A stretch of DNA of 64,000 nucleotides from Squalus acanthias (Eukaryota): assembly GCA_030390025.1 (NCBI GenBank), contig CM059427.1:182590001-182654000 (forward strand). Direction: 5' to 3'. Both the position numbers and the translations under genes were made by a program. The notes under the pieces are model-generated. The model ran no database searches, was not told the DNA's origin, and worked only from the letters and a program-made list of their open reading frames with translations. Numbering within the stretch: position 1 is the stretch's first letter; each line of letters opens with the position of its first letter. Positions 2,446-38,444 of the stretch are shown piece by piece.

Positions 2446-2853
2446 TGAATTTATTTTTTTGTAGTAATTTAATTCTAGAACCAATAGAAACACTTGGGGG
2501 TAGAAATTAGGTCGCGCCCCATTTGGGGCGCAAATATCGTCCGCGCGCAAATATTAGCGCCTGGCGCTAATTATCGGCACTGACAGGAAACTTCACTTTT
2601 ACCGCCCCGGGAGGTGAGTGGAGCGCTAAATTAGGCGCTGCACACCTCTCTTAAGGCGCAAAGGCCTAGGAGTGAGGCGCTAACTCAGCGCACGAGCGCA
2701 GCGCAGCTGCTGCCAGTTAGCGCGGGAACACAGACACACTGACGCCGGACACTTCTTAAAGCGGGGGGGGCCACTTGCTCCCCAGCCACACCCTGCTCAT
2801 TGCAGCCTTGAATCTCAGCCTGGAGAGACCTGTAATCCATTTTGCTGCCAAGA

Positions 2854-4925
2854 ATGGAGAGGGTGAGAGAACGCGCTCATCGCTTCACCGAGCGGGCCTT
2901 GGATGCTCTGGTTGACGCAGTGGAGCGCAGACGATGCATGCTGTTCCCAGAGAGTGGCAGGAGGCCTTTGCCACGCGAGTTCAGAAGAGTGTGGAGGGAG
3001 GTGGCTCAGAGCGTCTCCTCCAGGAGCATGGTGCCCAGGACCCATGTCCAGTGCCGCAAGAAGTTCAACGACCTCACTCGGGTCGTCAGGGTGAGTGGCT
3101 TTTTCTCAATACCTCTCCATCCCTCCATCTCAACCTCACTCTATGGCCAGAGGGTCTTAAAACCCCAATGCACAACACTCATCCAACACCTATGGCCCTT
3201 TCATCAAACACACACACACATTCCACACTTTGCATACAGTAAGGGCTATTCACCTATGGGAGGCACATCAGGCAAGACCATGGCTGCATATTGTAAGGGC
3301 TATTCACCTATGGGAGGCACATCAGGCAAGACCATGGCTGCATATTGTAAGGGCTATTCACCTATGGGAGGCACATCAGGCAAGACCATGGCTGCATATT
3401 GTAAGGGCTATTCACCTATGGGAGGCACATCAGGCAAGACCATGGCTGCATATTGTAAGGGCTATTCACCTATGGGAGGCACATCAGGCAAGACCATGGC
3501 TGTATATTGACTCAGATGCTGTCCTTTTTCTTGCAGGCTAAGCTGGCTCATAATCGGAGACAGCAGCAACGGACGGGTGGAGGGCGGCTTCAGCTGCAAC
3601 CCCTCAGCGATCTGGAGGAGCGCGTCCACAGGATTGTGGCAAGCCGGGTGATCGGTCCCGTCGCCACTGGAGACGCCGACCCCGTTGTGGACAGCAATGG
3701 TAAGGTCATCACCTTTTTGTCCTCTGTCCTTCCACTTGTCCCTCACAATACCAGCCTTTGACACTTTCAATCCAACTTGCTAACTCGCTGCACTTATTCC
3801 TCCCTTACTGCCACCCTGTCCTCACGCTAAAGCCACTCTTGTACCTCCCTGCTTTCAGATGGTGATTCACCAGCTGAGGAGATGGTCCCTGAAGCTGCCA
3901 CTGGGAGTGATGCTGCAGCTGAGGAGGAAGAGGAAGCCGGAGCATCAGTGCCACCCTCTCCCGAGGAAGCCCATGGCCACACTGGGAACACGCCTTCCCC
4001 GGAGGGGAGCAGGGGGGAAGGGGCTGATGATGGTGAAGTTCCAGGACCCAGCGGGCTGCAGCAACGCCATGGGGGGGGGAGGGAAGAACGGGGGAGCAGG
4101 GGGGAAGGGGCTGATGATGGTGAAGTTCCAGGACCCAGCGGGCTGCAGCAACGCCATGGGGGGGGGAGGGAAGAACGGGAGCCTTCTCCCCAGAGGGAGA
4201 GTATGCCAGACACTCCTAATGCAATGGACGCAGAGGAGGAGCGGATGATTGCAGAAATGAACAGCCAGGCGGTGGTCATGCACACTGAGCTCATGGGTGC
4301 AGTGGGAAGGGTGCCCGAATGCATTGAGGCACTGGCAAGGAGTGTGGAGCACTTCGCTGTAGCACAGGCGGATGCCACACTAAAGCTTACTGCTGCAATT
4401 CAGTCACTGGCTGCCAGGAACCCATCTGAGCCTGCTCTCATGCAGACTCAGATTGAGGCCACGCGAGCACTGACTGCTGCCATCCTCGATGGTTCGTGCA
4501 CATGTCCCCGGGGCTGTCACCGCGCCGCAGCAGGCCAGCAATCTGTTCTCAGGCAAATTGCTCCGGATGCTGAAGTGCTGCCCCGTGGGAGTGCCAGTGT
4601 GTCGGGCGAGCAGGGAGTTGCTGTCCTCTCTCACGATGACAGCATTCCTGCTGCCAACACTGTCACTTCTCCACTGCACTTGCCACCGCCTGTAGGACAG
4701 ACTGCTGCCGCCCATGCAGAGTTGGTGCAGTCTGCAGCCGGGCCCTCCAGGCCCAGAAGTGGTCGAGGCCGGCCTTCAGGGGCATCTGCAGTGTCAGGGT
4801 CTGACAAGCAGCAGCCTTCCACCAGCCTTGCTGCAGCCACTGAGGTCCCATTACGGAGGAGCAGTAGGGTTAGAAGGGGGGAAGTGCGCAAGGGAAGGAG
4901 ATCACCCTCGAAGGGCAAAAAGTAG
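2854..4925 (+). CDS. Harbinger Myb/SANT-like DNA-binding protein; exons 2854-3090, 3537-3699, 3859-4925; 488 aa
   Basis: Exon 1 encodes RAHRFTERALDALVDAVERRRCMLF...WREVAQSV...RTHVQCRKKFNDL. Splice sites AGG|gtgagt, ttgcag|, ATG|gtaagg and tttcag| join all exons in frame (237+163+1067 nt). Exon 2 has the typical RQQQRTGGG motif; the C-terminus is basic and NLS-like. Confidence 0.9.
3240..3509 (+). repeat. 5 x 54-bp tandem repeat in intron 1 of the Myb gene
   Basis: Unit taagggctattcacctatgggaggcacatcaggcaagaccatggctgcatattg; near-perfect, with one substitution in the last copy. Confidence 0.95.
4004..4182 (+). repeat. In-frame 87-bp (29-aa) tandem duplication in Myb exon 3
   Basis: GSRGEGADDGEVPGPSGLQQRHGGGREER occurs twice; copies start at 4004 and 4091. 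Confidence 0.95.
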
Positions 4926-5219
4926 GATGTGTGCCAAAATGCTGGTCATTTTTTTATTAAAGGCCGAGGTTCATGGCCCAACTTTTGTTTAGTGTTTTGG
5001 ACATTATCTCCAGGTTGTGAGAACCAGTTATGTTATTGACTGTTTTTTGGTGTTTATTTCTATGAGTTTCTCATGAGGAATTGACACACACAGAGTTTGT
5101 ACAATAAATAAGTTTCTGTATTCAAAATATACATGGCTGGTGGTTGGAATTATTGGTGCCTTGGCCGGCTTAGGGGTTGCGTGCTGGGTTGATTCGTGTT
5201 TGTAGCACTGGCAGGGGTC

Positions 5220-6380
5220 CTAGAAGCGGCTTGCTATTAGTCGTTGACGGACGGCCCTTGCAGTTTGACCATTGTGGGCCGCCCTCCTGCCTTGGTGCTG
5301 CTGCTGATCATCGTCCTCGGCCTGTTCCTCCTCTTCCTCCTCCTCCTCTTGTGGTGCTGCAAGGCCTGGTGGCATTGGCTGCGTCCTGAGGATTGCCATG
5401 TTGTGCAACATGCAGCACACCACTACGAATTTGGAAACTTGCTCAGGCGAGTACTGCAGGGCTCCTCCGGAATGGTCCAGACAGCGGAATCGTTGTTTGA
5501 GCACGCCGATTGTGCGCTCAATAATGTTCCTCGTTGCTTGTTGGCTTTCCTGGTACCGCAGCTCAGCAGGGGTGTTTGGCGCACGGAGCGGTGTCATCAG
5601 CCAGGTGCTCAATGCGTACCCCTTGTCCCCCAGAAGCCAACCAACTGGCTGATGCGGTGCCTCGAAAATTTCTGCCACAGTACTCTGGCGCAGGATGAAA
5701 GCATCGTGGCAGCTGCCCGGATAGTGGGCATTGACAGCGAGAATCACCTGTCTGTGGTCACAGACCAACTGCACATTCAAGGAATGGAACCCCTTTCTGT
5801 TCCGGAACTCCTCTGCATTCTCTCGCGGAGCACGCAAAGCCACATGCGTGCAGTCAATGGCGCCCTGCACCATGGGGAAGCCCGCTACCCTCGCAAAGCC
5901 CATAGCACGGTCATGCTGCTTGTCTGGGGTCATAGGGAAGGAGATGAAGTCTCGTCTCCTTGTGAAGAGGGCATTGGTGACCTGCCGAATGCAGCGATGC
6001 ACCGCAAACTGGGAGATATTGGCGAGGTCCCCAACAGCAGCTTGGAATGAGCCAGTGGCGTAGAAGTTCAAGGCCACTGTGACCTTCACTGCCACCGACA
6101 GAGACGTCCTGGACCTCAGCTGAGGCTGCAGATCTGGCTGCAGCAGGTGGCAGAGCTCAGTGACCACCTCCTTGCTGAATCGCAGCCTTCGCAAACACAG
6201 CTCCTCGGACATGTGGATGTAGGAGAGCTGTTCACGATATACCCTGGGAGGGTAAGCTCTCCTGTACATGCGCCTGATGGGCCTCCTCCGTCTGGCCATC
6301 ATTGCCACTCTCTGTCTGCGTCTCACTCTGCTCCGATTGAGCTGGAGCAGGACGACGCCCCCAATCATTGCAGCCCCCAT
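5220..6380 (-). CDS. PIF/Harbinger DDE transposase (HARBI1-like, DDE_Tnp_4 type), 386 aa, intronless
   Basis: GAIDCTH, FRNRKGFHSLNVQLVCD, PGSCHDAFI, LLGDKGY and RNIIERTIGVLKQRFRCL give an intact D-D-E triad. HTH-like region ALNFYATGSFQ; Arg-rich N-terminus. Confidence 0.95.
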   Translation of the reverse strand: MGAAMIGGVVLLQLNRSRVRRRQRVAMMARRRRPIRRMYRRAYPPRVYREQLSYIHMSEELCLRRLRFSKEVVTELCHLLQPDLQPQLRSRTSLSVAVKVTVALNFYATGSFQAAVGDLANISQFAVHRCIRQVTNALFTRRRDFISFPMTPDKQHDRAMGFARVAGFPMVQGAIDCTHVALRAPRENAEEFRNRKGFHSLNVQLVCDHRQVILAVNAHYPGSCHDAFILRQSTVAEIFEAPHQPVGWLLGDKGYALSTWLMTPLRAPNTPAELRYQESQQATRNIIERTIGVLKQRFRCLDHSGGALQYSPEQVSKFVVVCCMLHNMAILRTQPMPPGLAAPQEEEEEEEEQAEDDDQQQHQGRRAAHNGQTARAVRQRLIASRF

Positions 6381-6570
6381 CTTCTCTTTGCCAGAAAAGT
6401 AATGAGGTACAGCAACGAAAGTAGCAGCAAAGTTAGGATGAACTAGGCAAAACTACCTCACAAAGCGTTGAGTCAATGTAGAAGTCTCTCTCTCTCTCTC
6501 TCCGAATCTCTCTCTCTCTCTCAGAACGAGTGGTGCATAAATGTCGACCACAGAAAAAGACAGGAAGAGG

Positions 6571-6584
6571 CCCCCTTTAAATAG
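6571..6584 (-). promoter_or_regulatory. TATA-like box upstream of the transposase
   Basis: CTATTTAAAGGGGG on the minus strand ~200 bp upstream of the ATG; the tttaaatagcgc core is retained in the derivative element at ~51101. Confidence 0.45.
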
Positions 6585-6912
6585 CGCCCCCCCCAGCCCC
6601 AGACCGATTGATAACGTTCCAGTCTTCCGGTCGTTGGAAGCGCCAGGCGGTAAGGCAGGGGGCGCCACTCAATTTCCGCTCCGGGGCGCCCCAAGGGCGT
6701 TGCACCACAGAATGACGTCACAATCTGCGCGCGCAGGTGGTCGCAGCGGTAAGTTTTAGCGCCGCCGCACAATCTCAAGTTAAGTTCTCGAGCGGCGCAA
6801 ACAGCGCTGCGCCCAGGCGTTAGCGCCTTAACGCCCCATTAGCGCCCATTTAAGGCGCTAACGGGAGGCGCAACCAACTGAATTTTTACCCCTTGAAGTC
6901 TAGATTATATTT

Positions 6913-7454: not shown

Positions 7455-7912
7455 CTGAGTTGAGGATAGCACTCTCGTCTCTGAGTCAGAAGGTTGTGGG
7501 TTCAAGTCCCACTCCAGAGACTTGAGCGCAAAAATCTAGGCGGACACTCCAGTGCAGTGCTGAGGGAGCGCTGCACTGTCGGAGGTGCCGTCTTTCGGAT
7601 TAGATGTTAAACCGAGGCCCCTTCTGCCCGCTCAGGTGGACGTAAAAGATCCCATGTCACTATTTTGAAGAAGAGCAGGGGAGTTATCCCCAGTGTCCTG
7701 GCCAATATTTATCCCTCAATCAACATCACAAAAACAAATTATCTGGTCATTATCACATTGCTGTTTTGTGGGAGCTTGCTGTGCACAAATTGGCTGCCGC
7801 GTTTCCTACATTACAACAGCGACTACACTTCAAAAAGTACTTCATTGGCTGTGAAGCGCTTTGGGCACATCCGGTTGTTGTGAAAGGCGCTATATAAATG
7901 CAAATCTTCCCT
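7455..7912 (+). mobile_element. tRNA-derived Deu-domain SINE (SacSINE1-like), full length
   Basis: B-box ggttcaagtccc, Deu-like core aaagatcccatg...gtgtcctggccaa, and an L2-like tail gtgaaaggcgctatataaatgcaa. Confidence 0.8.
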
Positions 7913-8267
7913 TTTTTTCTTTGGATCTCACATTCTGTTCATGTAATTTTGTAGACTAATAAGATTCTGGAAAGACTGGTTCATTTGAACTGTTGTTTAA
8001 TTTGTATACCTTTCACATAACCTGCAGCCAAGATCAATTGGATACCTTTTCATTCTACATGCCACAAGTGAAAAAAGACTTTTTAAAGGGCAATTCATTC
8101 TAGATTACATTGTTTTGATTAACATTTAAATCACTACTGTAATCGTTAATTTTCTGTTGTAGTTGTCTGACCACTCAATGATCAATACAAGTACAAAATC
8201 AAACTGCACGGACTCCCCCTCCTATCCACTGCCTGCAATTTGTTACTAATTGCCCATAGGATATCTC

Positions 8268-8400
8268 AACAACAACAACAGCAACTTGTATTTATATAGC
8301 GCCTTTATATAGCGCTGCACAGGAGACAAAAAATTTGACACCGAGCCACCTAAAGAGAAATTAGGGCAGGTGACCAAAAGCTTGGTCAAAGAGGTAGGTT
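8268..8400 (-). mobile_element. L2 LINE 3' end fragment
   Basis: (aac)n tail plus the reverse complement of the L2 3' end seen at 61100-61248. Confidence 0.7.
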
Positions 8401-8454
8401 TCAATAGTTAGGGGAGCAGACAGACGTTTCTGCGGCCGCAGACGTGACTCCAGG

Positions 8455-8889
8455 ATGGTATATTGCCTCCCTGGTTCCAGGGTCAAGGATATCACTGAAC
8501 GGCTGCAGGGCATTCTGAGGAGGGAGAGTGAACAGCCGGAGGTCGTGGTCCATATCGGTACCAACGACATAGGTAGGAAGAGGGATGAGGTCCTGCAGGC
8601 AGAGTTTAGGGAGCTAGGAAAGAGATTAAAAAGCAGGACCTCAAAGGTAGTAATCTCTGGAATACTACCAGTGCCACGTGCTAGTGAGTTCAGAAATAGG
8701 AAGATAGAGCAGATGAATACGTGGCTGGAGAGATGGTGTAGGAGGGAGGGCTTTAGATTCCTGAGGAATTGGAACCGTTTCTGGGGGAGGCGGGACCTCT
8801 ACAAGCCAGACGGGTTGCACCTCAACGGGAACGGGACCAATATCCTTGCGGGAGGGTTTACTAGTGCTGTTGGCGAGGGTTTAAACTAG
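8455..8889 (+). pseudogene. CR1 ORF1 SGNH esterase domain (partial)
   Basis: CLPG, VVVHIGTND and DGLHLN motifs. Confidence 0.85.
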
Positions 8890-11296
8890 CTTGGCAGGGG
8901 GATGGGTACCTAAGTAGAGTCAATAGGGAGGGAAGAAAAACTGTAATTAGAAAACAAAAATGTAGAAAATAAATTGGAAGGACAGAGGAATCAAGGGCTA
9001 GATAGTAGTCAACAAGGAGGTTTGTCTGTACTAAATGGTATATACTTCAATGCAAGGAGTATAGCAAACAAGGCAGATGAGCTGAGGCACAGGTAGATAC
9101 TTGAGACTATGATATTATAGCTATTACAGAGATGTGGCTGAAAGAGGGGCAGGTATGGCAGCTCAACATTCCTGGTTGCAGGATTTTCAGACGGGCTAGA
9201 AAGGGAGGTAAAAAGGGAGGGAGGGTCGCGGTATTGATTAAAGAAACTATTACAGCTGTGAGGAGGGATGATATGTTGGAGGGATCGTCAAACAAGGCCA
9301 TATGGGTAGAATTGAAAAAAAAAAGGGGCGATCACACTGCTGGGAGTGTACTACAGACCCCCAAACAGTGAGAGGGAGATAGAAGAACAAATATGTAGAC
9401 AAATTTCTGAGAAGTGCAAAAACTATAGGGCAGTAATAGTAGGGGATTTAAACTACCCCAATATTAACTGGGATAAAATTAGTGTGAAGAGTATAGAAGG
9501 TGCAGAATTCCTAAAATGCATCCAGGAGAACTTTTTTAGCCAGTATGTAGCAAGCCCAACAAGGGAGGGGCTGGTTCTGGACTTAGTTTTAGGGAATGAA
9601 GCTGGGCAGGTAGAAGGCGTATCAGTGGGGGAGCATTTTGGTGCTAGTGACCATAATTGTGTTAGATTTAAGGTAGTTATGGAAAGGGACAAGGATAGAC
9701 CAGGAATAAAAATTCTAAATTGGGGAAAAGCAAATTTTGCTAAGCTCAGAGGGGATTTAGCCACAGTGGACTGGAAACAGCTACTTGAAGGTAAATCAGT
9801 GTCAGAGCAGTGGGAGGAATTCAAGGAGGAGATCCAGAGGGTTCAGACCAAATATGTGCCCTTAAAGAAAAAAGGTGGGACTAACAAATCTAGAGCCCTG
9901 GAGAAATCTAGAGACATACAGGGTAGGATAATGACAAAAAGGGAGGCGTATGACAGATACCGAGGGCTAAATACTCCAGAATCTTTAGAGGAGTACAGAA
10001 TGTGCTGGGGTGCAATTAAAAGGATATTAGGAAAGCAAGGAGAGAGCATGAAAAATTCTTGACAAGTAAAATCAAGGAAAACCCAAAGATGTTTTATAAA
10101 TATATTCAGAGTAAGAGGATAACTAAAGAAAGGGTAGGGCCTAGTAGAGATCATGAGGGTAATCTGTGTTTGGAGGCAGGAGACGTCGGTAGGGTTCTTA
10201 ATGAATACTTTGCGTCTGGTTTCACGAAGGAGAGGGTGAAGAAGACACTGCTATCAGGGGGGAGGAGTGTGAAATATTAGATGAAATAAACATAGTGAGA
10301 GAGGAAGTATTAAGGGGTTTAGCAGCTTTAAAAGTGAATAAATCCCCAGGCCCGGATGAAATGTATCCCAGGCTGTTAAGTGAAGCAAAAGAGGAAATAG
10401 CAGAGGCCCTGACCATCATTTTTCAATCCTCTCTGGCTTCAGGTGTGGTGCCGGAGACTGGAGGACTGCTAATGTGGTACCCTTGTTTAAAAAGGGAGAA
10501 AAGGATAGACTGAATAATTACAGGCCAGTCAGCCAAACCTCGGTGGTGGGCAAATTATTGGAAAGAATTCTGAAGGACAGGATAAATCTTCATTTAGAAA
10601 GACACGGATTAATCAAAGATAGTCAGCACAGATTTGTTAAGGGAAGGTCGTGTCTGAAAAACTTGATTGAATTTTTTGAGGAGGTAACAAGGAGGGTAGA
10701 TGAGGGTAGTGCATTTGATGTAGTGTATATGGACTTTAGCAAGGCTTTTGATAAGGTTCCACATGGCAGACTGGTCACGAAGTTAAAAGCCCATGGGATC
10801 CAAGGCAAAGTGTCAAGTTGGATTCAAAACTGGCTCGGAGACAGGCAGCAGAGGATAATGGTTGATGGGTGTTTTTGTGACTGGAAGGTTGTTTCCAGTG
10901 GGGTTCCGCAGGGCTCAGTACTAGGTCCCTTGCTTTTTGTGGTATATATCAATGATCTTGACTTGAATATAGGGGGTATGATTAAGAAATTTGCAGATGA
11001 TACTAAAATCGGCTGTGTGGTTGATGCTGAAGAAGGAAGCTGTAGACTGCAGGAAGATATCAATAAATTGGTCAGGTGGGCAGAACAGTGGCAAATGGAA
11101 TTCAATCTGGAGAAGTGTGAGGTAATGCATTTGGAGAGGGCTAACAAGGAAAGGGAATACACATTAAATGGTAGGACACTGAGTAGTGTAGAGGAACAAA
11201 GGGACCTTGGAGTGCATGTCCACAGATCCCTGAAGGTAGCAGGCCAAGTAGATAAGGTGGTTAAGAAGGCATACGGAATGCTTGCCTTTATTAGCC

Positions 11297-11984
11297 ATGA
11301 TGTGGAGATGCCGGTGTTGGACTGGGGTGGACAAATGTGAGAAGTCGCACAACACCAGGTTATAGTCCAACAGCTTTATTTGAAATCACAAGCTTTCGGA
11401 GCGCTGCTCCTTCATCAGGTGAAGTGAAGAGATGCATATAGGCACAGCATATATAGTCAGAGAACACTGCCAGATGATTACAGTTAATCTTTCTAACTGC
11501 CCTTTATCACACCTCGGCAGAGAGATAATCACGGCAATCAAAGGTGTGGATGGTGTCCAAACAGGTCAGTCAGGAAAACATTACATCAAAGACAATGAGG
11601 TGGGGTCACAAGAGGTCCATTGTGGCAGATGCTGGGATGTGTGTGGAAAACAAAAAACTGTTTTTGCTGGAAATCACAGCAGGTCTGGCCGCATCTGTGT
11701 AGAGAGAACAAGCCAACGACGACTCGCGTCTGGATGACTCTACGTCAGGTGGGGTTACATGTAGCGTGACATGAACCCAAGATCCCGGTTGAGGCCGTCC
11801 TCATGGGTGCGGAACTTGGCTATCAGTTTCTGCTCGACGATTTTGCGTTGTCGTGTGTCTCGAAGGCCGCCTTGGAGAACGCTTACCCGAAGATCGGGTC
11901 TTTGATGTAATGTTTTCCTGACTGACCTGTTTGGACACCATCCACACCTTTGGTTGCCGTGATTATTTCTCTGCCGAGGTGTGA
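11297..11984 (-). mobile_element. Penelope-like element (family A): GIY-YIG C-terminus, hammerhead motif and inverted terminal segment
   Basis: 11755-11895 on the minus strand encodes DLRVSVLQGGLRDTRQRKIVEQKLIAKFRTHEDGLNRDLGFMSRYM*. An 86-bp inverted repeat spans 11507-11592 and 11899-11984. Confidence 0.8.
11386..11422 (-). ncRNA. Minimal type I hammerhead ribozyme motif
   Basis: ucac-CUGAUGA-a-ggagc(agc)gcucc-GAAA-gc-UU-guga: stem I ucac/guga, 5-bp stem II, palindromic AAGCUU in place of stem III. Confidence 0.8.
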
Positions 11985-12110
11985 CCTGATTGAGGTGTAC
12001 AAAATTATGAGGAGCATTGATAGGGTAGATAGAAAGGAACTTTTCCCCTTAGTAGAGGGGTCAATCACCAGGGGGCATAGTTTCAAGGTAAGGGGCAGGA
12101 GGTTTAGAGG

Positions 12111-13350
12111 ATTGGCTATCTAACAGAAAGCAAAGAGTTGGGATAAATGGTTCATTCTCAGACTGGCAATCAGTAACTAGTGGTGTTCCACAGGGGTCAG
12201 TGCTGGGTCCCCAACTCTTTACAATCTATATTAACGATTTGGAGGAAGGGACCAAGTGTAACATATCAAAATTTGCAGATGATACAAAGATGGGAGGGAA
12301 AGTAGTGAGTGAGGAGGACATAAAAAACCTGCAAGGGGACATAGACAGGCTAAGTAAGTGGGCAGAGATTTGGCAGATGGAATACAACACTGGAAAGTGT
12401 GAGGTGATGCACTTTGGCAGGAAAAATCCTAGAGCAATTTATTATCTTAATGGCAAGAAACTGGAGAGTACTGAAGTGCAAAGGGATCTGGGGGTCCTGG
12501 TGCACGAAACTCAAAAGGTTAGTATGCAGGTGCAGCAAGTGATTAAGAAGGCAAATGGAATGTTGGCTTTCATTGCTAGGGGGATAGAATATAAAAATAG
12601 GGAGGTATTGCTTCAGTTGTACAAGGTATTGGTGAGACCGCACCTGGAATACTGCATACAGTTTTGGTGTCCTTACTTAAGGAAAGACATCCTTGCTCTC
12701 GAGGCAGTGCAAAAAAGGTTCACTCGGTTAATCCCGGGGATGAGGGGGTGGTCATATGAGGAGAGGTTGGGTAGATTGGGACTCTACTCATTGGAGTTCA
12801 GAAGAATGAGAGGCGATCTTATTGAAACATATAAGATTGTGAAGGGGTTGGATCGGGTGGATGCGGGGAGGATGTTCCCGATGACGGGTGAGACTAGAAC
12901 TAGGGGACATAGTCTTAGAATAAGGGGCTGCTCTTTCAAAACTGAGATGAGGAGGAACTACTTCACTCAGAGGGTGGTAGGTCCATGGAATATGCTGCCA
13001 CAAAAAGCTGTAGAAGCTACATCATTAAATAAATTTAAAACAGAAATAGACAGTTTCCTAGAAGTAAAGGGCATTAAGGGTTACGGGGAGCGGGCAGGAA
13101 TTTGGACATGAGTCTAGGTTCGGATCGGTCATGGCCCTGTGGGTAGTGGAGCGGGCCCAGGGACCGTGTAGCCTGATTCTGCTCCTATTTCGTGTGTGCA
13201 ATTCTGTTAGATGCAGGAGATGGTTCTGTGACAGATAGTAGATTGGCGGTTAGGATCAGATCAGCCATGATCTTATTGAATGGCGGAGCAGGCTCGAGGG
13301 GCCGATTGGCCTACTCCTGCTCCTATTTCTTATGTTCTTATGTTCTTATG
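12111..13350 (+). mobile_element. Young CR1 LINE, 5'-truncated (RT C-terminal half, 3' UTR, (ttcttatg)n tail)
   Basis: Open ORF 12200-13111 with FADD and RPHLEYC; octamer tail at ~13327-13350; closely similar to the 16626-19790 copy. Confidence 0.92.
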
Positions 13351-13406: not shown

Positions 13407-13957
13407 AGGGAAGAAATTCAGCTGCTTTGCGCGTCCCGTTAGCACCTGGGGGGGTGGGGGGATGTGGTGGTAACGGGCCGTTAAGGAGTTTGCGACCGGG
13501 CGCGGCTAATTAAAGGCACTGGTTTTCAGGTAGGCCAAACCTTATTTTTATACCAGTCTGGTGCCTGCTGAAAGTTTTCGATGCTTTGTTGCTGCGACAT
13601 GTCCAAGCCCTCCACTCTCTGAGAGTGTTTGGGGCTGTAATGGCAGTCGCGCAGGTCGCCTGGCAACACATAATTGAGCAGAAGTATGTTGTGCACCATA
13701 ATTGGCCCTTCCCTTTAAGCGAGGGAAGCAGCCTCCGATGCCGGTATCTTAGCACTCCACATTGTTCAGCGCTCTGCTGCTACTGCCCCGCTCTCACACT
13801 TTAGCGCCCTAAGAGAAGTGGTTTGTGCTTGATTTAGCACTCCACTTCCCTCTTGGTGCACTGGAGCTCAATTTCCCGGCAGGAGAGAATCATTAGCGCC
13901 TGGCGCTACTTTTCCTACTTTTCAAAAGTTAGTGCCCCAAACCGAATTTGTAGCCCT
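13407..13957. mobile_element. Harbinger-type MITE related to the 2497-6892 element
   Basis: Ends agggaagaaattcag and ccgaatttgtagccct; contains ttagcgcctggcgcta. No clean TSD. Confidence 0.6.
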
Positions 13958-16625: not shown

Positions 16626-19600
16626 CATAAGAACAGAAGAAATAGGAGCAGGAGTAGACCAATCGGCCCCTCGAGCCTGCTCCGCCATTCAATGAGATCA
16701 TGGCTGATCTGATCCAACCTCAACTCTAAAGAACACAAGTAGGAGCAGGACCAGGCCACTCGGCCCCTGGGCCCGCTCCGCAACCCACAGGGCCTTGACC
16801 GATGCGAACTCAAACTCATGTCCAATTTCCAGCCCGCTCCCCGTAACCCCGGATTCCCTTTACTTCTAGGAAACGGTCTATTTCTGTTTTAAATTTATTT
16901 AATGAAGTAGCTTCCACAGCTTCCTGGGGTAGCAAATTCCACAGACCCACTACCCTCTGAGTGAAAAAGTTTCTCCTCATCTCAGTTTTGAAAGAGCAGC
17001 CCCTTATTCTAAGATTATGTCCCCTAGTTCTAGTTTCACCCATCATTGGGAACATCCTCACCGCGTCCACCCGATCAAGCCCCTTCACAATCTTATATGT
17101 TTCAATAAGATCGCCTCTCATTCTTCTGAACTCCAATGAGTAGAGTCCCAATCTACTCAACCTCTCCTCATATGTCCACCCCCTCATCCCCGGAATTAAC
17201 CGAGTGAACCTTCTTTGTACTGCCTCGAGAGCAAGTATGTCTTTTCTTAAGTATGGACACCAAAACTGTATGCAGTACTCCAGGTGCGGTCTCACCAATA
17301 CCCTATACAACTGCAGCAATACCTCCCTGTTTTTATATTCTATCCCCCTAGCAATAAAAGCCAACATTCTGTTGGCTTTCTTGATCACCTGCTGCACCTG
17401 CATACTAACTTTTTGATTTTCTTGCGCCAAGACCCCCAGATCCCTTTGTACTGCAGTACTTTCCAGTTTCTCGCCATTAAGATAATAACTTGCTCTCTGA
17501 TTTTTCCTGCCAAAGTGCATAACCTCACATTTTCCAATATTGTATTGCATCTGCCAAATCTCTGCCCACTCACCCAGCCTGTCTATATCCCCTTGTAGGT
17601 TTTTTATGTCCTCCTCACTCTCTACTTTCCCTCCCATCTTTGTATCATCTGCAAACTTTGATATGTTACACTCGGTCCCCTCCTCCAAATCGTTAATATA
17701 GATTGTAAAGAGTTGGGGACCCAGCACCGACCCCTGCGGAACACCACTGGCTACTGGTTGCCAGTCCGAGAATGAACCATTTATCCCAACTCTCTGCTTC
17801 CTGTTAGATAACCAATCCACCACCCATGCCAAAATATTACCCCCAATCCAATGATTTTTTATCTTGAGTACTAATCTTTTATGTGGCACCTTGTCGAATG
17901 CCTTCTGGAAGTCTAAATACACTACATCCACTGGTTCCCCTTTATCCACCCAGTACGTTATGTCCTCAAAGAACTCGAGCAAATTTGTCAGACATGACTT
18001 CCCCTTCATAAAGCCATGCTGACTTTGTCCTATTAAATTATGTTTATCTAAATGTTCCGTTACTGTCTCCTTAATAATAGACTCCAAAATTTTACCCACC
18101 ACAGATGTTAGGCTAACTGGTCTATAATTTCCAGCCTTCTGCCTACAACCCTTTTTAAATAAGAGTGTTACATTAGCAGTTTTCCAATCTGCCGGGACCT
18201 TTGCTGAGTTCAGGGAGTTTTGGAAAATTATTACCAAAGCATCCACAATTCCTACTGCCACTTCCCTCAAGACCCTAGGATGTAAGCCATCAGGTCCAGG
18301 GGATTTATCCGCCTTGAGTCCCATTATTTTACTGAGTACCATTTCCTTAGTGATTTTAATCGTATTTAGCTCCTCCCCCACTAGAGCCCCCTGTTTGTCC
18401 AGTGTTTGGATATTCTTAGTGTCCTCTACCGTAAAGACTGAAACAAAATATTTGTTCAGCATTTTTGCCATCTCCATGTTTCCCACCATTAATTTCCCGG
18501 TCTCATCCTCTAAGGGACCTATGTTTGCCTTCACCACCCTTTTTCTTTTTATATAACTATAGAAACTCTTGCTATCCGTTTTTATATTTTTTGCTAATTT
18601 ATTTTCATAGTCTATTTTCCCTTTCTTAATCAATCCTTTAGTTACTTTTTGTTGTCTTTTGAAGACTTCCCAATCTTCTATCCTCCCACTAACTTTGGCT
18701 ACCTTATATGTCCTTGTTTTTAGTTGGATACTTTCTTTAATTTCTTTACTTAGCCATGGATGGCTGTCATTTCTTTTACACCCTTTTTTCCTCAGTGGAA
18801 TATATTTATTTTGAAAGTTGTAAAATAACTCCTTGAATGAACACCACTGCTCATGTACCGTCTTACCCTTTAATCTATTTTCCCAGTCCACTTTAATCAA
18901 TTCTGCTCTCATGCCATCATAGTCTCCTTTATTCAAGCTCAGTATGCTTGTTTGAGAACCAACCTTCTCACCCTCTAATTGGATATGGAATTCAACCATG
19001 TTATGGTCACTCATTCCAAGGGGATCCTTAACTAGGACATTATTAATTAATCCAGACTCATTACACAGTACCAGGTCCAAGGTTGCTTGCCCCCTTGTAG
19101 GATCAGTTACATACTGCTCAAGAAATCCATCCCGAAGACACTCAATAAACTCTTCCTCAAGACTGCCCTGCCCAATTTGATTTGTCCAGTTAATATGATA
19201 TTTAAAATCCCCCATAATTATAGCGGTTCCCTTATTACATGCCCCAACTATTTCCTGATTAATACTTCTTCCAACAGAGTTGCAACTATTAGGAGGCCTA
19301 TATACTACGCCCACCAGTGTTTTTTTTCCCCTTATTATTCCTTATCTCTACCCAAACTGTTTCATTATCCTGATCTTTTGACCCAATATCATTTCTCTGT
19401 ATTACAGTGATTCCTTCCTTTATTAACATAGCCACCCCCCCTCCCCTTCCTTCCTGCCTGTCCTTCCTGATTGTTAAATACCCTGGCATATTTAATTCCC
19501 AAACGTTGTCACCCTGCAGCCATGTTTCTGTAATGGCCACAAGATCATACCCATACATAGTTATTTGTGCCGTTAACTCGTCAATTTTGTTACGAATGCT

Positions 19601-22968: not shown

Positions 22969-24730
22969 ACAAAATCAGACTGGTCTCCCAGACATTCTGG
23001 CTGCAGCCAACCAAGGTGACAAGCTGACACTTATGTAGATAGGTGTTAGGAAATGCTTCTGGTGAGAGCAACATAAATATTTCTGCAATTAAAAGGTATT
23101 AACAAAGAAAGGGCAGCCAGTTATCACGACAGCCATATGAAACTGCAATGTCTGTGGGCCTTGTTGTCCTCAAAAACGCAGTTTCTAGCCTTCACCTACA
23201 GAATGTGGATTTTAACTCAACCCTGAGACTCTTACAGTAATTTAAAATGGCCAGTTCCATCTCATAGATAATTAAAAAAAAATCAACTTACTTATAATCT
23301 AAATGTGATGAAACTGCCTATTTGCCTTATATGAGAAAGAGTGAGAGGAATTATTTTTGGCAATATTGTAAGGCACAGATTCAGCAATTGATACTTTTCA
23401 TCAGGGATCCCCATTCACTTAAAGTATTTAAGAAGTATGAATTTCCAGGATATGTTGTTATCGGATCTCCAAAGAGAAGATTACTGGGTTGTGAAGTGAA
23501 TTTGTTTTTATTTTAAAACTCTGCTATCTTCAAAGTTCTCAAGTTATTTTTCTTCAGAGGTCTTTTGTTATAGAACATTAAATAAAGTACTGACTGAGAG
23601 GGAACTGCCATAGCAACACAATGATGGACTAAAGTGCCAGGTCCTTAGTGCTAGATTGTAGGTTTTCCCTCTGTGATTCTACATGTCATGAGTTCTTAAT
23701 CACAACCATCTGAGGGTAGGGAAGAAGGGAGAAGTGAGTTGGATAAGTCCCACTACACCATGAAGAGATTTCATGACACTGGTTGGGAAATCTCATTGCA
23801 CATATGGTTAATGGGCTAGGTCCTATTATACTGGTTGGTAATACACAAGGCAAAGATTCAGAAGATGAAGTCTCTCCTAGTCGCTATCCAGTGACTCTTG
23901 CTAGGTGAGAAGAAGATTGTGCTTGGTTGCAACTGCTCTCCACAGTTGAATAGCCCGCCAACATTTACTATCTAAGCACATACATGAATCATGGTTGTCT
24001 GGGTTAGGTTCCAAAGAGTTGCAACAATCTGTAGCCCGGCAACAGTCAGCACATTGAGGAGAGGAAAGTGGGGGAATAGGAGAAAACAAAATCAAGGAAA
24101 GCTGTGTTGGTGAACAATTCACACGACACTCACGCAAACGGCCTGTTACTGCACTGTAATAAGTAATGGGAATAAAACAATTCCTACTATGTGCTGGGAT
24201 AGCTAAGATATGATAGAATTCGCCGTCTCAGAGGATGCCGTCATACCGACTTTGAAATGGACCGCAAGTTTGGGATTTCTGCACGCACTTGCACGTGCTC
24301 TAATTCCCGAGCTTGCGATCTGTCAAGTTATGTCGTGATAGATCATCCGCTCCGCCTTGGAAATCCCAATTGCTGGCACAGACTTGGGCTAATTGCCCAC
24401 CAACTACCCGGCAATTACGTAATTTTTTTTTACAGCTGATGCAAACAGACACAGGGCCTGCTTGCATCAGCGTAATGAGATACCTCAAAAGATCGAAAGC
24501 ATCGTTCGGCTTGTATTTAGCTCACTTAAAAGTGAAATTGGAATACTACAACAGATGGAAGCACCTGAGCTTCGTAGAATTGCGAAGAGCTTTCTTTGTT
24601 AGTTTGTTTTGTCTACACATTTTATTGAAATCCAATGTTGAAGCTTGGTGCTGTCATTTCGCCATTTTTTTCCCGTGTGGGGCAATTTGAATTCAACCGA
24701 TACTAAATCCCAAATAAAGAATGAAATATT

Positions 24731-25458
24731 GGCCCGAAAATTAGACCTAATACGTGAGAGTACGCACTGTGTACTCTCGCGTTTTAGGTCTCCAATCGTC
24801 GGTTTTCAGCATGCACTGCGCATGCGTGGGAAACCGGCACTTCGTGAACTCAAAAGGGGGCGGTTCCTAAGTGAACCGCGCGCGCTACAGTGCTTTGAAC
24901 GCGCAGGTAAGCATGGAAGATTTTACACATAAAGAAAGGAGGCGTAAGACCCTCTTTAAACAAGGTAAGTAGTTAATTAAGTATTATTTTAAAAAATTTT
25001 CAACAGGTTTATCTTTTTTAGAGACATTAAAGAAAGGTAAGTTTATTTTTATAACTTTTAAAAAGATTTTAAATTTTTTCAAAAATTTAAATTTTTGTTT
25101 AAAGTGGTTAATTTATTTAAATATAGTTATTTTATTAATGTGATGGTTTTTTTTTTAAATTTAATTGAGGTTTAGCTGTTCTTTTGGGGGTAAGTTGTAT
25201 TCATAGCTTTGACAGTTGTTCTGTCAAAACTATGAATGAAAGATGGTGTGCTGCCATTGGCTCTAACTGAATCACGTGATCCCACAGCTCGCACGAACTA
25301 ACTGCGTCTGTGGGTCACGCAAGCACTGCACAGCTGCATGTGGGACTGGCCTTGAAACTAAAGTTCGTGTGAGCCCGGAGGGAAAAGGTAGGCGCGCAGT
25401 GAGATATCGCGGGGAAGCCTTACCCCCGCAGGAACACTCCGTGTTTAATTTTTGGGCC
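24731..25458. mobile_element. Harbinger-type MITE nested in an older hairpin-rich element (~24220-25825)
   Basis: TIRs ggcccgaaaatta / taatttttgggcc; TSD ATT at 24728-24730 and 25459-25461. A second copy starts at 63468. Confidence 0.85.
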
Positions 25459-26547
25459 ATTAAACCTATATATTTATATCTTATTTCCTGACATTAAAGC
25501 TTTTAGTGCAACACTCAGCATGCCAGGTGCCAGCCTGCACCCTCCTTTCTCCTATAAGCCTGATGCAATGGTTCCCACATATCTGTCAACACTGTAAGAG
25601 GAAACTCGGTGCTTCCACTGATTGGAGCACCAGGCTCACGTGATCCCAGGTACGCTTCCGCATACGCTGCGCCCCTGGGATCCGTGGGCCGTTACACTGC
25701 CCTCGAGTACGCAGCGTCAAAGAGCAAGTTCGCGAAGGAGGGTCCCCATCAGGTAAGTTCTTTTTCTATTCGGATGCCGGCAGCGTACTCCGTAGGTACG
25801 CCGCTGACTGCAAAATATGCCCCATTATAACCAAGATGATGAGGATACAGGAGTCATTTGAGAACTGACTACATACTAAACTTGTCATGATTAGCAAAGA
25901 ACAAAGGTGCGATGTCTACTGTGACAATTCCAAAATCTTCTTTTCAATTCATTATATGATCCATACTTTAAATGGGTACTTGTTAATCTGCCTGAATTCA
26001 TCAACCATGGAAGGTATCACTCCTGTAGCAGTGAGAGAAAGCAGAATGAAATGTACAGAGGATGGTAAGCCACTCAGTTATTAAATTATCAACAAGTTCT
26101 TGTATGTTGACATTTATCTTGGTAAAGTAGAAGGATAGTTCAATTTTCCACTGAATATGTAAACAGTGAAGGGCTCATCCGCTTCTACAAAATAATTTAC
26201 TGGATTTTGACAAATGTTTCTGAGCACCAGTGTGTATGACATGGAGTGATGGGGCACTGGTTCTCACCTATAATACTCTACACCCTGAGCGATATTATTT
26301 GGATAGGGTTATAGTGTGTATTTTCTTCAGCTGTGCGCTGGTCTTGGAAGAGTGCACAGTAGGCTTTGTACCCACCTGAGCTATGCACAGATAGTCTCAT
26401 GCTAATGTTTGGATTTGTTCTTCAATTCCTCACTTTCTGACAGGAAATTTTCCAGTCATAGTGAGTGTGTCGATTCAAGGGTAGGATATAACCCTGCAGT
26501 GCCTATTTGTTATCCATTGCCTTTCCCTGGGAAAGTGACTAAGTTGC

Positions 26548-26830
26548 TTACCCTGCTCGGCAAAGCATCTGTACACTGCTAATTGATATTGCGGGTATCC
26601 CCCTTGGCAGCCTGGAATGACCAACAGGCATAAAAGTTAAGGAGATCTGTGAGCTTGACTGCCAGTCCCTGTAGTTCAGGGGTTGTCTGTGGGTTAGCTT
26701 GCAGCAGATGCACAATTCCGTCACTGCCTCCCTGTGAACCTTAGCCTGCAGAAGCAAATCTCTTCTGATAGTCCCAGGTAGCTGCTTCTGGGTTAGTAAA
26801 CATAGCGGGTATAGACAGACCATCTCCTGT
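26548..26830 (-). pseudogene. Decayed Harbinger transposase N-terminal remnant
   Basis: Frameshifted YTRYVY*PRSSYLGLSEEICFCRLRF..EAVTELC..LNFYA..SFQAA aligns by eye to the 5220-6380 transposase. Confidence 0.7.
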
Positions 26831-27363: not shown

Positions 27364-29076
27364 CAGCTAGAAATACGTTATAGCCAAGAAATGGGCGGTG
27401 TTTAGACTAAAAATGGTTACGTAGCACCAGTTGAAAATCGTCTAGACTGCACGCAAAATTTGTCCTCGCTCCTCATTAAAATGATTGCTGTCATGATTCT
27501 AGTCTAAAAGCTCAAGCTCATTGGCATTACACTGAAAAGATGGACCAATATTGGGGGCAGTCTAAACACAAGCAATGATTGCCACAGGCTTTTTTCACTA
27601 CTTAAAGAGGAGGTCCATTGATGCTGCAGCACCTCATTCTCAGCAGTGTTGGGTTTACAGCTGCCTCAACAACCATAAGAAGAAGGACAAGGAGAAGGAG
27701 CACTTATTTACAAATCCTGATGGCAGATCTCCGCCCCAGGGAGAGAGCCTGGAGGTTTTCCGAGGAAGCTTTGGAGGCATTGGTTTTAGCGGTGGAGAGA
27801 AGGTAGGCAGTCCTGTACCCTCCAACTGGCAGGAAGCCCTCGCCACAAGTCTGCCAGACGATGTGGAAGGAGGTGGCACACCACATCACGGGCAGCACCG
27901 TGCTCCTCAGGACCTACACACAGTGCAGGAGGAAGTTTAACAAGCTCACACGGGTGGTCAGGGTGAGTGAAGGCTTAAACAAATGCTACATACCACCATC
28001 TGTACCACAAGATTGATACACTGCTCAATACACCACACCCTCAGCACTCAACCAACAACAATCTTTGCCTAGCAACACTAACACCCACATCTCACACCTT
28101 GCACACAATGACAGCTATTCAACTATGGCAGGCACAAGAGTCATTTGTCACTAGAATTCATGTGATATGTGTGATATGTTTATAGTTACATTTATTAAGT
28201 ATGTTTGGAATATTTTGTGGTCTCTCTCATTTTACCTTTGTGCCCAGGAGGACGCTGTGATACGCCGTGAGCCAGGGATTTGTATGATGGGGATGTGGTG
28301 AGCTACGGGGATCTGGGGTTTCATTTATGCGAATCGGCGTCTGATGAGCCGATTACGGACAGACTGTCCAGAAGGCCGATTGTCTTGCTGCCTCCGCCCT
28401 CCCTCCTGTTCCTCCTCCTCGTCCTCTTCCTCCTCTGCCTCGTTCTCTTCCTCCTCATCCTCCTCTGCCTCGTTCTCTTCCTCCTCATCCTCCTCTGCCT
28501 CGTTCTCTTCCTCTTCATCCTCCTCTACCTCATTGTCCTCCTGAGGTAATACCGCAATCCCGCAGCCCCCATGATTGTGAGGAATTGTTGTGAGCAGAAG
28601 CCATTAACAAATAATGAGTGACTTCTGCACTTGAATGAACACTCCCTGTCACCAAAAAAACTTGAAATAACTAAAGAAAGCTGTTTCAGTTGCAGGAAGT
28701 AGCAAACAGCCACTGAAACTGCAGAACCATGTTAGCTGCAGCTGATTGGGGATGGCACCTTTAAATATCGCTGCTGCAGCCTGCTTCCTGCTGATAGATG
28801 CCAGCTCTCCCTGTCGTTGTTCTGTGCTGCCGTTAAAGTAAGTGGCTATAATGAAGTTGGGAGATTGGACGTCCAGTGAGCGTTGCACACTGACTGGCGT
28901 CACGATCTCCATGATGCCGAGGTCCCTGGCGATTGAGTTTACCGGCAGTGCTACCGACAACACTGATATAGCGTGCTGCGCTGGAACCGGCATCAGCTGT
29001 CGTTACAGCTGTCAATGGCATTTTAGCGCCATCTTGTGGCGCAAACATGTGGCACAAACCACACAAATTTCTCCCC
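27364..29076. mobile_element. Non-autonomous Harbinger (copy 1): Myb exon-1 remnant (+) and transposase 5' end (-)
   Basis: RFSEEALEALVLAVERR...RKFNKLTRVVR|gtgagt; minus-strand MGAAG followed by an Arg-rich 27-bp repeat; ends aatttctcccc. Homologous to 56301-57856. Confidence 0.8.
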
Positions 29077-30764: not shown

Positions 30765-32537
30765 GGCCGGAATCTTCCGGGATGGTAGCGGGCGCGATTG
30801 GTGGTGGGTCAGGTGGGAAAGTTGTTATTTTTGGGAGCGGGTTGGGAACGTGCTGTCATCCCGCCCCCATCGCCTTTCCCCCAGGTGCCTCTGTCATCGT
30901 GGAGCCGACTGGCTGTGGCGGGCGACCCAATTGAGATGATTAACAGGTAGTTTACAGGCACTTAAGGACCTTTTTTCACTTACTTTTTAAATATTCCTGC
31001 ATGGCCATGGGATTCATGCAGCTCAGGAAGCATGTCTGTCAACCTGAGGCGGGAGTTCCGTGGCCATTGCTCCAGCTGATTACTTGACAGTATCAAATGT
31101 ACAGTAAAAGCTCCACCTGACAGATGATCACTTTCCTCAGGCAGAAGCTGTTGCTCAGTCCATTTCCAGTACAGATTCTGCAGGCTGCAAGTGTTTCCAG
31201 CAAAGTCTCCATCCAGTCTCACCTCATTGGAAGAACTCTCTCACCATTGACAGAATGCTTCTGTCATCTGTACTTCACCTGCCATCTATTCCATCAACAT
31301 GGGTGCCATTTATACTGTCTCACTTTGGTCCTCAGAAACGGACCACGATGAGCCCCAACACCAGCAGCACCAGGCACACCAGCAGCACCAACAACAACAC
31401 CAACCTTCTCCGCAATCACCTGATGCAGCACAGGACAGAGGGCATCAGCACCCGAGCACATTGCTGCCCAGGAGGCCAGGGATGGCCTCACCACGGCCAG
31501 ATTTAGTTAACTTTACGCTGTACATCCATATTGGCAGCCACATGATGTGCCAGGTTGACACCACCCCACGACAACACCATAAAGCATCCCTACAATGACC
31601 AAGCCATTCCTTTCACACTCATCATCATTGCGGGGGGTACCGTTATGTCTCACCATTCACTGCAACTCACTAAGCCACTTCCAAAGGTGCACACAAATCT
31701 GTCCAAGACCGGAAAGATTTTTATGTTTGACACCACATTAACAGAAACTTTACATAAACATTGCATAAAACACCCAAGTGGCTACCCTTGTGTGTTGTTA
31801 GTTGGTATGATTGCACAAAGATGAGGGTGAGTGTGAGGGATGACTCGTGAGATGGGGATGTGATAATGTAGATAGAGAGAGAGGGATGAGTGGAGGTACA
31901 AGTTATGCTGGTGTGAGTAAGGATGTGCAGGAGTAGGGTAGGGAAGGCAGAGTGATGGGGATGTGATGAGAGGCACAGCAGGATGAAGTTGAGTGTGGCT
32001 TTGTACTAATGTTTCCTGATCTAATGAGATCATTGAAATGTCTGCGGCACTACACCCAGGGCCTCCTGACCACATCCCTGTTTGTGACCTCCTCTGCAAT
32101 CTGCAACCAGGCTGTCTTTGTCTCCTGGGGAGGTCTCTTTTGCCCATTGGATGGGAAGAGGACCTCCCTGCGTTCTCTGACTCCCTCCTTAAGCATATGG
32201 AGGGAGTTATTCGAGAACCTGGGTGCAGCCCTCTACTTCTGTGCAGTCATTGTCAGTGTCTGCAGCACTCCAATGCTGTAGTGCACTGACAGCACTATCT
32301 TAGATTAAACTTCAAATCTAATGTGGTCAGTGGTCCCTTTAAAGATCCTGGCTGAAAACGCATCATGAATGACATCATCAGACCTGCTCCATCTCATTGG
32401 ACCGGGTAACGCGCTGGATGGGCTTAATAGGCCCCATTAAGGTAAGTTCATTTTCAACAGTGGGATGGAGCCAGCAGAGGGTGTGACCCATCATGACCGC
32501 CCGCACCGGACCCGCCCAGGTAGGCAAAATTCTGGCT
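30765..32537. mobile_element. Non-autonomous Harbinger (distinct family): Myb remnant (-) and transposase-like start (+)
   Basis: Ends ggccggaat / attctggct; TSD GCT. 32011-32250 on the minus strand reads MTAQK*RAAPRFSNNSLHMLKEGVRERREVLFP...AWLQIAEEV...RPWV*CRRHFNDL. MGA start at 31299. Confidence 0.8.
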
Positions 32538-36354: not shown

Positions 36355-36690
36355 TAGCACTCGTGCCTCTGACTCAGAAGGTTGTGTGTTCAAGTCCCAC
36401 TCCAAACACTTGAGCACCTAATCTAGGCTGATACTTCAGTTGAGTGCTGAGAGAATGCTGGACTGTCGGAGGTGTCATCTTTCGGATGAGATGTTAAACC
36501 GAGGCCCTGTCTGCCCTCTCAGGTGGACGTAAAAGATTACACGACACTATTTGAAGAAGAGCAGGGGAGTTCTCCCCAGTGTCCTGGCCAACATTTACGG
36601 CTCAACCAATACCACCAAGAACAGATTATCTGGTCATTTATCTCATTACTGCATGTGAGATGCAAATTGGCTGCCGCATTTCCCTGACCA
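36355..36690 (+). mobile_element. SacSINE1-like Deu-SINE, 3'-truncated
   Basis: Similar to 7455-7912. Confidence 0.8.
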
Positions 36691-36865: not shown

Positions 36866-38053
36866 TGCATGGATCCTGTGCATGGATCTTGTGCATAGAT
36901 CCTGTGCATGGATCCTGTGCATGGATCTTGTGTATGGATCCTGTGCATGGATCCTGTGTATGGATACTGTGCATGGATCTTGTGCATAGATCCTGTGCAT
37001 GGATCCTGTGCATGGATCCTGTGTATGGATCCTGTGTATGGATACTGTGTATGGATACTGTGTATGGATCCTGTGCATGGATCCTGTGCATGGATCCTGT
37101 GTATGGATACTGTGTATGGATACTGTGTATGGATCCTGTGCATGGATCTTGTGTATGGATACTGTGCATGGATCTTGTGCATGGATCCTGTGCATGGATC
37201 TTGTGTATGGATCCTGTGCATGGATCCTGTGTATGGATACTGTGTATGGATACTGTGTATGGATCCTGTGCATGGATCCTGTGTATGGATCCTGTGTATG
37301 GATCCTGTGTATGGATACTGTGTATGGATACTGTGTATGGATCCTGTGTATGGATCCTGTGCATGGATCCTGTGTATGGATCCTGTGCATGGATCTTGTG
37401 TATGGATCCTGTGCATGGATCCTGTGTATGGATACTGTGTATGGATCCTGTGCATGGATCCTGTGTATGGATCCTGTGTATGGATCCTGTGCATGGATAC
37501 TGTGTATGGATCCTGTGCATGGATCCTGTGCATGGATCCTGTGCATGGATACTGTGTATGGATACTGTGTATGGATCCTGTGCATGGATCCTGTGTATGG
37601 ATCCTGTGTATGGATCCTGTGCATGGATCCTGTGCATGGATACTGTGCATGGATCTTGTGCATGAATCCTGTGCATGGATCCTGTGTATGGATCCTGTGC
37701 ATGGATCCTGTGCATGGATCGTGTGTATGGATCCTGTGCATGGATCTTGTGTATGGATCTTGTGTATGGATCCTGTGTATGGATCCTGTGTATGGATCCT
37801 GTGCATGGATCCTGTGCATGGATCCTGTGCATGGATCTTGTGCATGGATCCTGTGCATGGGTCTTGTGCATGGATCCTGTGTATGGATCCTGTGCATGGA
37901 TCTTGTGCATGGATCCTGTGCATGGATCCTGTGCATGGGTCTTGTGCATGGATCCTGTGCATGGATCCTGTGCATGGGTCTTGTGCATCGATCCTGTGCA
38001 TGGATCCTGTGCATGGATACTGTGCATGGATCATGTGGATGGATCTTGTGCAC
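36866..38053. repeat. 13-bp minisatellite, ~91 units, consensus ATGGATCCTGTG(C/T)
   Basis: Directly visible; variants GGATCC/GGATCT/GGATAC/GGGTCT and GCAT/GTAT. Confidence 0.98.
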
Positions 38054-38444
38054 AAGATACTTAGAAAGAATTCTGGGGTGACCTCAGTGGAACAGCCAGG
38101 CCACATGGGAAGTTAGTTAAAAATGAGTTTGCACAGTTGAGTTGAAAGGTAAAACATCAACTGAAAATTTCACTTACAAATAGGAATTTCACCATGGGCT
38201 CTACTGTTCAGTCGAGAAGATAAAAAAACATGAATGATTTTTATGGAACGACTTTCATTCCTTAATTGAATTTTAGATGGAAAACAACTATGTGGCTATG
38301 ATTCATGAGCTGGAGAAAATCACTGAACTAAAATTTCCTAAGCAGCCCCAATGATACCGCTGCACAAATGAGAGAATTAAATTAAACAATAAATGAATGA
38401 CAAACAAAGCTATTACAACTCCAGTTCTTAGTGCCTCCGGTTAT

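Follow-up and report, generated by a model that had tools for sequence, protein, structure and literature searches.

A probable full-length, two-component Harbinger transposon with open genes in Squalus acanthias

A 64,000-nucleotide stretch of Squalus acanthias DNA (GenBank assembly GCA_030390025.1, contig CM059427.1, forward-strand positions 182,590,001 to 182,654,000; hereafter the window, numbered from its first base) contains, at 2497-6892, a 4,396-bp element with the layout of a Harbinger transposon. The locus raises two questions: is this a complete two-gene transposon of an elasmobranch, and could its own proteins still move it? The element consists of a convergent gene pair between short terminal inverted repeats (TIRs) that start with GGG, it was inserted with a 3-bp stagger, and it shares its target with neighbouring elements that include deletion derivatives. 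We put a probability of about 85% on the reading that an elasmobranch Harbinger (PHIS superfamily) lies here at full length, with two components and of the autonomous type, and that it has decayed little since insertion, because its frames are open. The question of mobility is answered far more cautiously below.

Ends and genes of the element

The left border reads TTG/GGGGTAGAAATT, with the element starting at 2497, and the right border reads AATTTTTACCCC/TTG, with 6892 as the last base of the element. The TIRs are 12 bp long (GGGGTAGAAATT at 2497-2508 on the plus strand and GGGGTAAAAATT at 6881-6892 on the minus strand) and agree at 11 of 12 positions, with one mismatch; these two ends are the only exact matches to the degenerate TIR pattern in the 64-kb window. 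They are flanked by a perfect target-site duplication (TSD), TTG, at 2494-2496 and 6893-6895 (p=0.017 for a 3-bp match by chance), which is preceded on the left by the half-site AAACAC (2488-2493) and followed on the right by AAGTCT (AGACTT on the minus strand).

Inside the TIRs lie CpG-rich subterminal regions at 2509-2853 (plus strand) and 6507-6880 (minus strand), which carry four and six copies, respectively, of the motif WRGCGCY. These ten copies in 743 bp of element ends compare with a background of 0.29 per kb, an enrichment of a motif that was picked after inspection of the ends, and they are candidate binding sites for the Myb protein. TATA-like motifs occur near both ends: CTTAAA at 2755, with a TTAAAG core invariant across three relatives, and TATTTAAA at 6583-6576, oriented toward the transposase gene. 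Between the two stop codons, AATAAA motifs at 5103-5108 (plus strand) and at 5053-5058 (minus strand; a second at 4953-4958) are candidate poly(A) signals of the Myb and transposase genes, respectively, as judged from the motifs. With these signals, the 3' untranslated regions of the two genes would overlap. A promoter scan built on a bacterial model, which is not relevant to a shark host, yielded nothing usable, and Rfam gave 0 matches across the window. Solved structures gave no meaningful relative (one low-complexity match, E 0.013).

The transposase gene is intronless and encodes 386 amino acids (aa) on the minus strand, from the ATG at 6380 to the stop at 5220. Its product matches Pfam DDE_Tnp_4 (PF13359) with an E value of 5e-38, above the family cut-off, and D176, D252 and E288 (codon first bases 5855, 5627 and 5519) align with the catalytic consensus columns. 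At E ≤1e-20, a homolog search retrieved 361 of 3,045 candidate proteins, and 120 of these were listed. Among the matches listed, sharks or rays are the named source of 112 of 120, and the best homolog, from Pristiophorus, has 65% identity at 90% coverage.

The transposase appears unusually well preserved among these homologs. It deviates at two of the 92 columns that are conserved in at least 80% of sequences, which places it second of 111 (homolog median: 12%), and at five of 136 columns at a 70% threshold, joint first of 108. The complete DDE triad, which the element retains, is kept by 52 of the 109 homologs that cover all three sites.

The Myb/SANT gene lies on the plus strand. Exon 1 (2854-3090; 79 aa) encodes a trihelix domain (Pfam PF13873, Myb_DNA-bind_5, E 1.3e-9) and is followed by intron 1 (3091-3536, GT-AG), which contains a tandem array at 3231-3509 (54-bp unit, 5.2 copies, 98% alike), exon 2 (3537-3699), intron 2 (3700-3858, GT-AG) and exon 3 including the stop codon (3859-4925). 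Spliced together, the three exons give 488 aa without a stop. Exon 3 encodes an acidic linker, in which 87 bp (29 aa) are perfectly duplicated in frame (4004-4177), a conserved putative helical region (approximately 4218-4580) and a basic C-terminal tail, a candidate nuclear localization signal.

The splice model was compared with 75 related proteins, comprising 74 Myb homologs and P0006, a Pristiophorus gene model in which a homologous Myb part is fused to a transposase. The spliced product matched 70 of the 75, while exon 2 alone matched seven and exon 3 alone five, locally. Junction 1 was spanned by 67 alignments, 62 of them ungapped, and one protein, P0124, is an end-to-end homolog that aligns to residues 11-485 at 35% identity. 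The same exon-1 splice donor is present in two decayed paralogs (27962 and 56841). Read-through of intron 1 as an alternative product was ruled out, as none of the 75 homologs matched it. Junction 1 and the exon-3 frame are strongly supported by homologs; for junction 2, 14 of 24 crossings were ungapped, and the exact acceptor is less certain because it is located in a low-complexity linker. Searched against a large protein collection, exon 3 alone matched nothing at E 0.001 among 8,000 candidates, and a search with exon 1 limited to "longer" lengths gave one match among 158 candidates. Two related proteins, P0122 and P0123, contain two or three tandem Myb modules, which suggests duplication of the Myb gene or fused gene models.

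A preliminary description of this DNA had proposed TIRs with a perfect TTG duplication, an open transposase with three catalytic residues and a Myb/SANT gene of three in-frame exons. All of these are borne out, junction 2 being the weaker part of the gene model, and the sources of the transposase homologs support its suggestion of a cartilaginous-fish lineage.

Target sites, mechanism and neighbours

Two non-autonomous relatives in the window retain both ends: an internally deleted 881-bp element at 50538-51418 (plus strand), both ends of which are approximately 78% identical to those of the full element, and a more distant 699-bp element at 48016-48714 (plus strand). Perfect 3-bp duplications of the form NWG flank all three two-ended elements (TTG, AAG and CAG, respectively). 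The surrounding sequences are GAAACAC-TTG-AAGTCTA for the full element, AGAACCC-AAG-GAGTCTA for the 881-bp relative and GGGACAC-CAG-AAGTTGC for the 699-bp relative, and have in common an extended palindrome, NRACNY-NWG-RNGTYN. NRACNY describes all six half-sites; the pattern was drawn up with all six in view, and its p-value is thus not a held-out one.

The published target of Harbinger3_DR is AAACACCWGGTCTTT, with the half-site AAACAC (PMC3016246). Our six half-sites agree with AAACAC at 24 of 36 positions, a score reached in none of 200,000 random draws; the comparison was prompted by the left flank of the element, which itself contributes six of the 24 matches. Three further, decayed elements with one end or without a clean TSD (13407-13956, 27366-29076 and 56301-58036) were omitted from this test. 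The right end of the one near 27 kb is followed by CTG-AAGCCT, which fits the target pattern except at one base. In this lineage the preferred target thus appears to be a palindrome similar to that of Harbinger3_DR, a feature that the preliminary description did not contain.

In Harbinger3_DR, Ping and Pong, transposition depends on both proteins, and the Myb protein binds subterminal motifs as well as the transposase, which it takes to the nucleus; excision is usually precise (PMC2836001, PMC9710019). By analogy, both genes of the present element would be transcribed inward from promoters at its ends. The Myb/SANT protein would bind the repeated subterminal motifs with their GCGC core, bind the transposase and carry it to the nucleus and to the element ends, where the DDE transposase would cut the element out and insert it into the favoured palindrome, with duplication of 3 bp. 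The short deleted relatives were probably mobilised by transposases of the same lineage.

The Harbinger lineage is dense here, with approximately eight pieces in 64 kb. Those at 27366-29076 and 56301-58036 are 1.7-kb deleted Harbingers of another family, 82% identical and with broken frames, that keep Myb exon 1 with its donor and an acidic tract resembling the transposase C-terminus. Other debris comprises an element at 13407-13956 that resembles a MITE (miniature inverted-repeat transposable element), a decayed transposase fragment (26528-26816) and a Myb exon-1 fragment (32020-32220).

The window consists mostly of long interspersed nuclear element (LINE) sequence and transposon debris. An open LINE ORF2 of 841 aa with endonuclease and reverse transcriptase lies at 16819-19341 (minus strand), and related LINE pieces span 8398-13343, including a GDSL-esterase-like ORF1 fragment (8398-8886). 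A 13-bp satellite occupies 36866-38052 (91 copies, 90% matches), and two copies of one unclassified repeat, 77% identical, lie at 24722-25228 and 63459-64000. A repeat resembling a short interspersed nuclear element (SINE), which may be a shark SINE, has five copies (7467-7922, 36355-36683, 38439-38774, 39826-40286 and 41642-41910), 80-86% identical to the first.

Relation to known Harbinger elements

Han et al. (2015; PMC4482050) describe the NuwaI group by a CWG TSD, TIRs of 12-61 bp that start with GGG, a length of approximately 4.5 kb and a transposase plus a Myb protein. Its zebrafish member HARBINGER3_DR (NuwaI-2_DRer) has 4,204 bp, a 12-bp TIR and proteins of 343 and 221 aa (PMC4482050). 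Our comparison with both is drawn from these descriptions rather than from direct sequence comparison. The element has a 12-bp TIR, a GGGG start, 4,396 bp and two open reading frames (ORFs). With Harbinger3_DR it shares a length of approximately 4.2-4.5 kb, the 12-bp TIR with its GGG start, the combination of DDE_Tnp_4 and Myb_DNA-bind_5, a 3-bp TSD ending in WG and an extended palindromic target with the half-site AAACAC, which is exact on its left flank. It differs in the TSDs of its lineage, where TTG, AAG and CAG stand in place of strict CWG (strict CWG at one of three, CAG; NWG at three of three; three sites being too few for a consensus), in the right half-site (RAGTYK, versus GTCTTT in Harbinger3_DR), in the size of the Myb protein (488 versus 221 aa) and in its elasmobranch host, as no shark is among the NuwaI hosts in the text available. 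Its frames are open in the native copy, in contrast to the reconstructed Harbinger3_DR. The element probably works like the NuwaI/Harbinger3_DR type; it is a candidate member of the NuwaI group at most, because its TSD is TTG.

In broader terms, the element has the components of a two-ORF PHIS transposon: a DDE transposase with an intact triad, a Myb/SANT second ORF, short TIRs and a 3-bp TSD. The TWA duplication of PIF/Harbinger sensu stricto occurs at none of the three sites. With that group, which includes rice Ping/Pong and mPing, it shares two genes, a 3-bp TSD, an extended target and MITE-like derivatives (PMC2836001), but the TWA TSD and 9-bp target of the Ping/Pong/PIF group are unlike those of the present lineage. 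Moreover, Ping and Pong are proven to be naturally active, whereas our element is known from sequence alone. As of 2010, these two were the only naturally active members named (PMC2836001); the superfamily also includes Spy elements that are active in their native form (PMC11304231). Coelacanth LatiHarb1 and the Pleurodeles Harbingers, which resemble the element by description, are also vertebrate and Myb-carrying; they are abundant, have reported transcription and live in other hosts.

The closest sequences are elasmobranch gene models annotated as "putative nuclease HARBI1" (Pristiophorus, Heptranchias, Mobula, Narcine, Carcharodon and others), whose transposases are up to 65-66% identical. 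Unlike the element, they carry gene annotations, and the triad is incomplete in about half of them. In a tree of the transposase homologs only, five short-branch clades of such models span different shark and ray genera (P0009/P0012; P0019/P0023; P0039/P0040; P0004/P0005; and P0008, P0015, P0017, P0020, P0024, P0027), and nearly all of their members lack the catalytic E. These clades are candidate elasmobranch-specific domesticated Harbinger transposases, and their novelty may exceed that of the element.

Intactness is not new: animal families in which both ORFs are intact have been catalogued before, numbering 88 for PIF/Harbinger, 11 for NuwaI and 22 for NuwaII at the family or consensus level (Han et al., 2015; PMC4482050), and the novelty assigned to the element in the preliminary description was overstated. 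The same paper calls PHIS absent from sharks. Etchegaray et al. (2022; PMC9179366) report no Harbinger from the elephant shark and flag other cartilaginous fish for checking, and in genome papers on the whale shark and the grey reef shark, PIF-Harbinger is mentioned only at the level of a repeat class (PMC8455134, PMC12498223). Further related literature includes PMC8151067, PMC3787270, PMC12637253, PMC3750513, PMC5741667 and PMC10288884. A literature search that lay mostly outside subscription papers turned up neither a published full-length Harbinger from an elasmobranch, although an earlier description is possible, nor a natively active animal Harbinger. The element is thus of a known kind, to which the full elasmobranch anatomy and the target motif are added.

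Age, activity and significance

The ends of the element are rich in CpG (observed/expected 0.84 left and 1.07 right, versus 0.36-0.42 in flanking DNA), which had been taken as a sign of youth. The richness is real, but the deleted relative at 50538-51418, with its 78% identity, is equally rich (0.84/1.05), and the polarity of decay (14 vs 8, p=0.29) is not significant. CpG content was therefore rejected as an age marker. The open frames are better evidence of little decay. We simulated neutral decay in 400 runs, tracking both frames, the splice sites, the DDE residues and the termini. All features remained intact in 3-11% of runs at 1% divergence, in 0-1% at 2% and in 0 of 400 at 3%. The intact frames imply neutral decay of roughly 1% or less. 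At the mutation rate of the epaulette shark, 7e-10 per base per generation (PMC10587355), 1% divergence takes approximately 14 million generations, and a rate ten times higher would still require 1.4 million; given so slow a rate, "young" need not mean recent. Of the earlier claim of a young, natively intact copy, structural completeness and little decay stand, while youth is not shown.

Several observations weigh against our interpretation. The bound from the simulation rests on assumed indel and CpG rates, and it is loosened by ascertainment, as the copy was noticed for its intactness. The window holds no near-identical copy (the closest is 78% identical, at the ends only); a search for an empty site inside the window found none, and the flanks lack a joint paralog there. 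Likewise, no near-identical transposase was among the matches listed from the protein collection (best 65-66%, 3,045 candidates). At a 90% threshold the transposase deviates at one of 31 columns and ranks just 25th of 116. Two residues in the helix preceding E288 are atypical: Q277 (codon 5552) is absent from all 115 homologs compared, of which 104 have N, and Q280 (codon 5543) is found in four of 117, with H in 96. At 84 aa, the helical span of the Myb protein is shorter by 16-45 aa than in seven of seven relatives (100-129 aa). TTG departs from the strict NuwaI CWG, which it matches at two of three bases, and the binding and mechanism steps proposed above are inferred.

One rival explanation, to which we give roughly even odds, is an intact-looking fossil: the family would be immobile, and this copy would be silenced or dead through missense or in-frame damage, its frames outlasting it in slowly changing shark DNA. 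The divergence-time estimates above favour such persistence, as do the 841-aa LINE frame that likewise survives in the window and the state of all other Harbinger copies found there, which are deleted or decayed. N277Q, H280Q, the short Myb helical region and the 29-aa duplication may be lesions or family traits. Conversely, the TSD, splice sites and DDE residues are undamaged, retention of conserved columns is among the best of 111 homologs, and the Q277 codon, CAG, is two base changes away from an Asn codon, and N277Q therefore fits a family trait better than decay. A fossil bears on activity and is compatible with the identity of the element as a two-component Harbinger.

Clearly less probable is an autonomous element that is active now or was so very recently, with native proteins able to transpose it. 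Every sequence-level requirement checked is satisfied, and promoter-like and poly(A) motifs are rightly placed for both genes, but the CpG evidence does not discriminate and the residues near E288 are atypical. That the native proteins transpose is on balance unlikely, and it is somewhat more doubtful that they do so unmodified while inserting preferentially at the palindrome of approximately 15 bp, NRACNY-NWG-RNGTYN.

A co-domesticated transposase and Myb pair, immobile and held open by host selection, for which the known co-domestication of both PIF genes in insects (PMC9710019) and the several domesticated-looking cross-species elasmobranch clades in the tree provide a precedent, is very unlikely because the element retains its TIRs, perfect TSD and target palindrome, which the domesticated pairs in the available text of PMC9710019 lacked, and lies outside all short-branch clades, with no close cross-species ortholog of the HARBI1/NAIF1 kind in the tree and no host gene detected among the long ORFs of its surroundings of LINE and transposon debris.

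Taken together, a little-decayed, two-component Harbinger remains our reading; for one elasmobranch lineage, the element documents the whole anatomy, the two proteins and a motif of the target. The sole vertebrate Harbinger with shown transposition in the literature covered was a reconstructed one. The two-protein mechanism and extended target specificity could therefore be tested cheaply with this element, whose native gene pair is open, whose ends match and which has natural MITE-like substrates. If inactive, the element would be a well-preserved but unremarkable transposon and would illustrate how long frames can stay open in slow-clock genomes. If its native proteins do transpose, it would be, within the literature searched, the first animal Harbinger-type element that needs no reconstruction; a tool for sequence-selective integration could be developed from it, and it would give direct access to how recognition of the ends and choice of the target are shared out between the Myb protein and the transposase.

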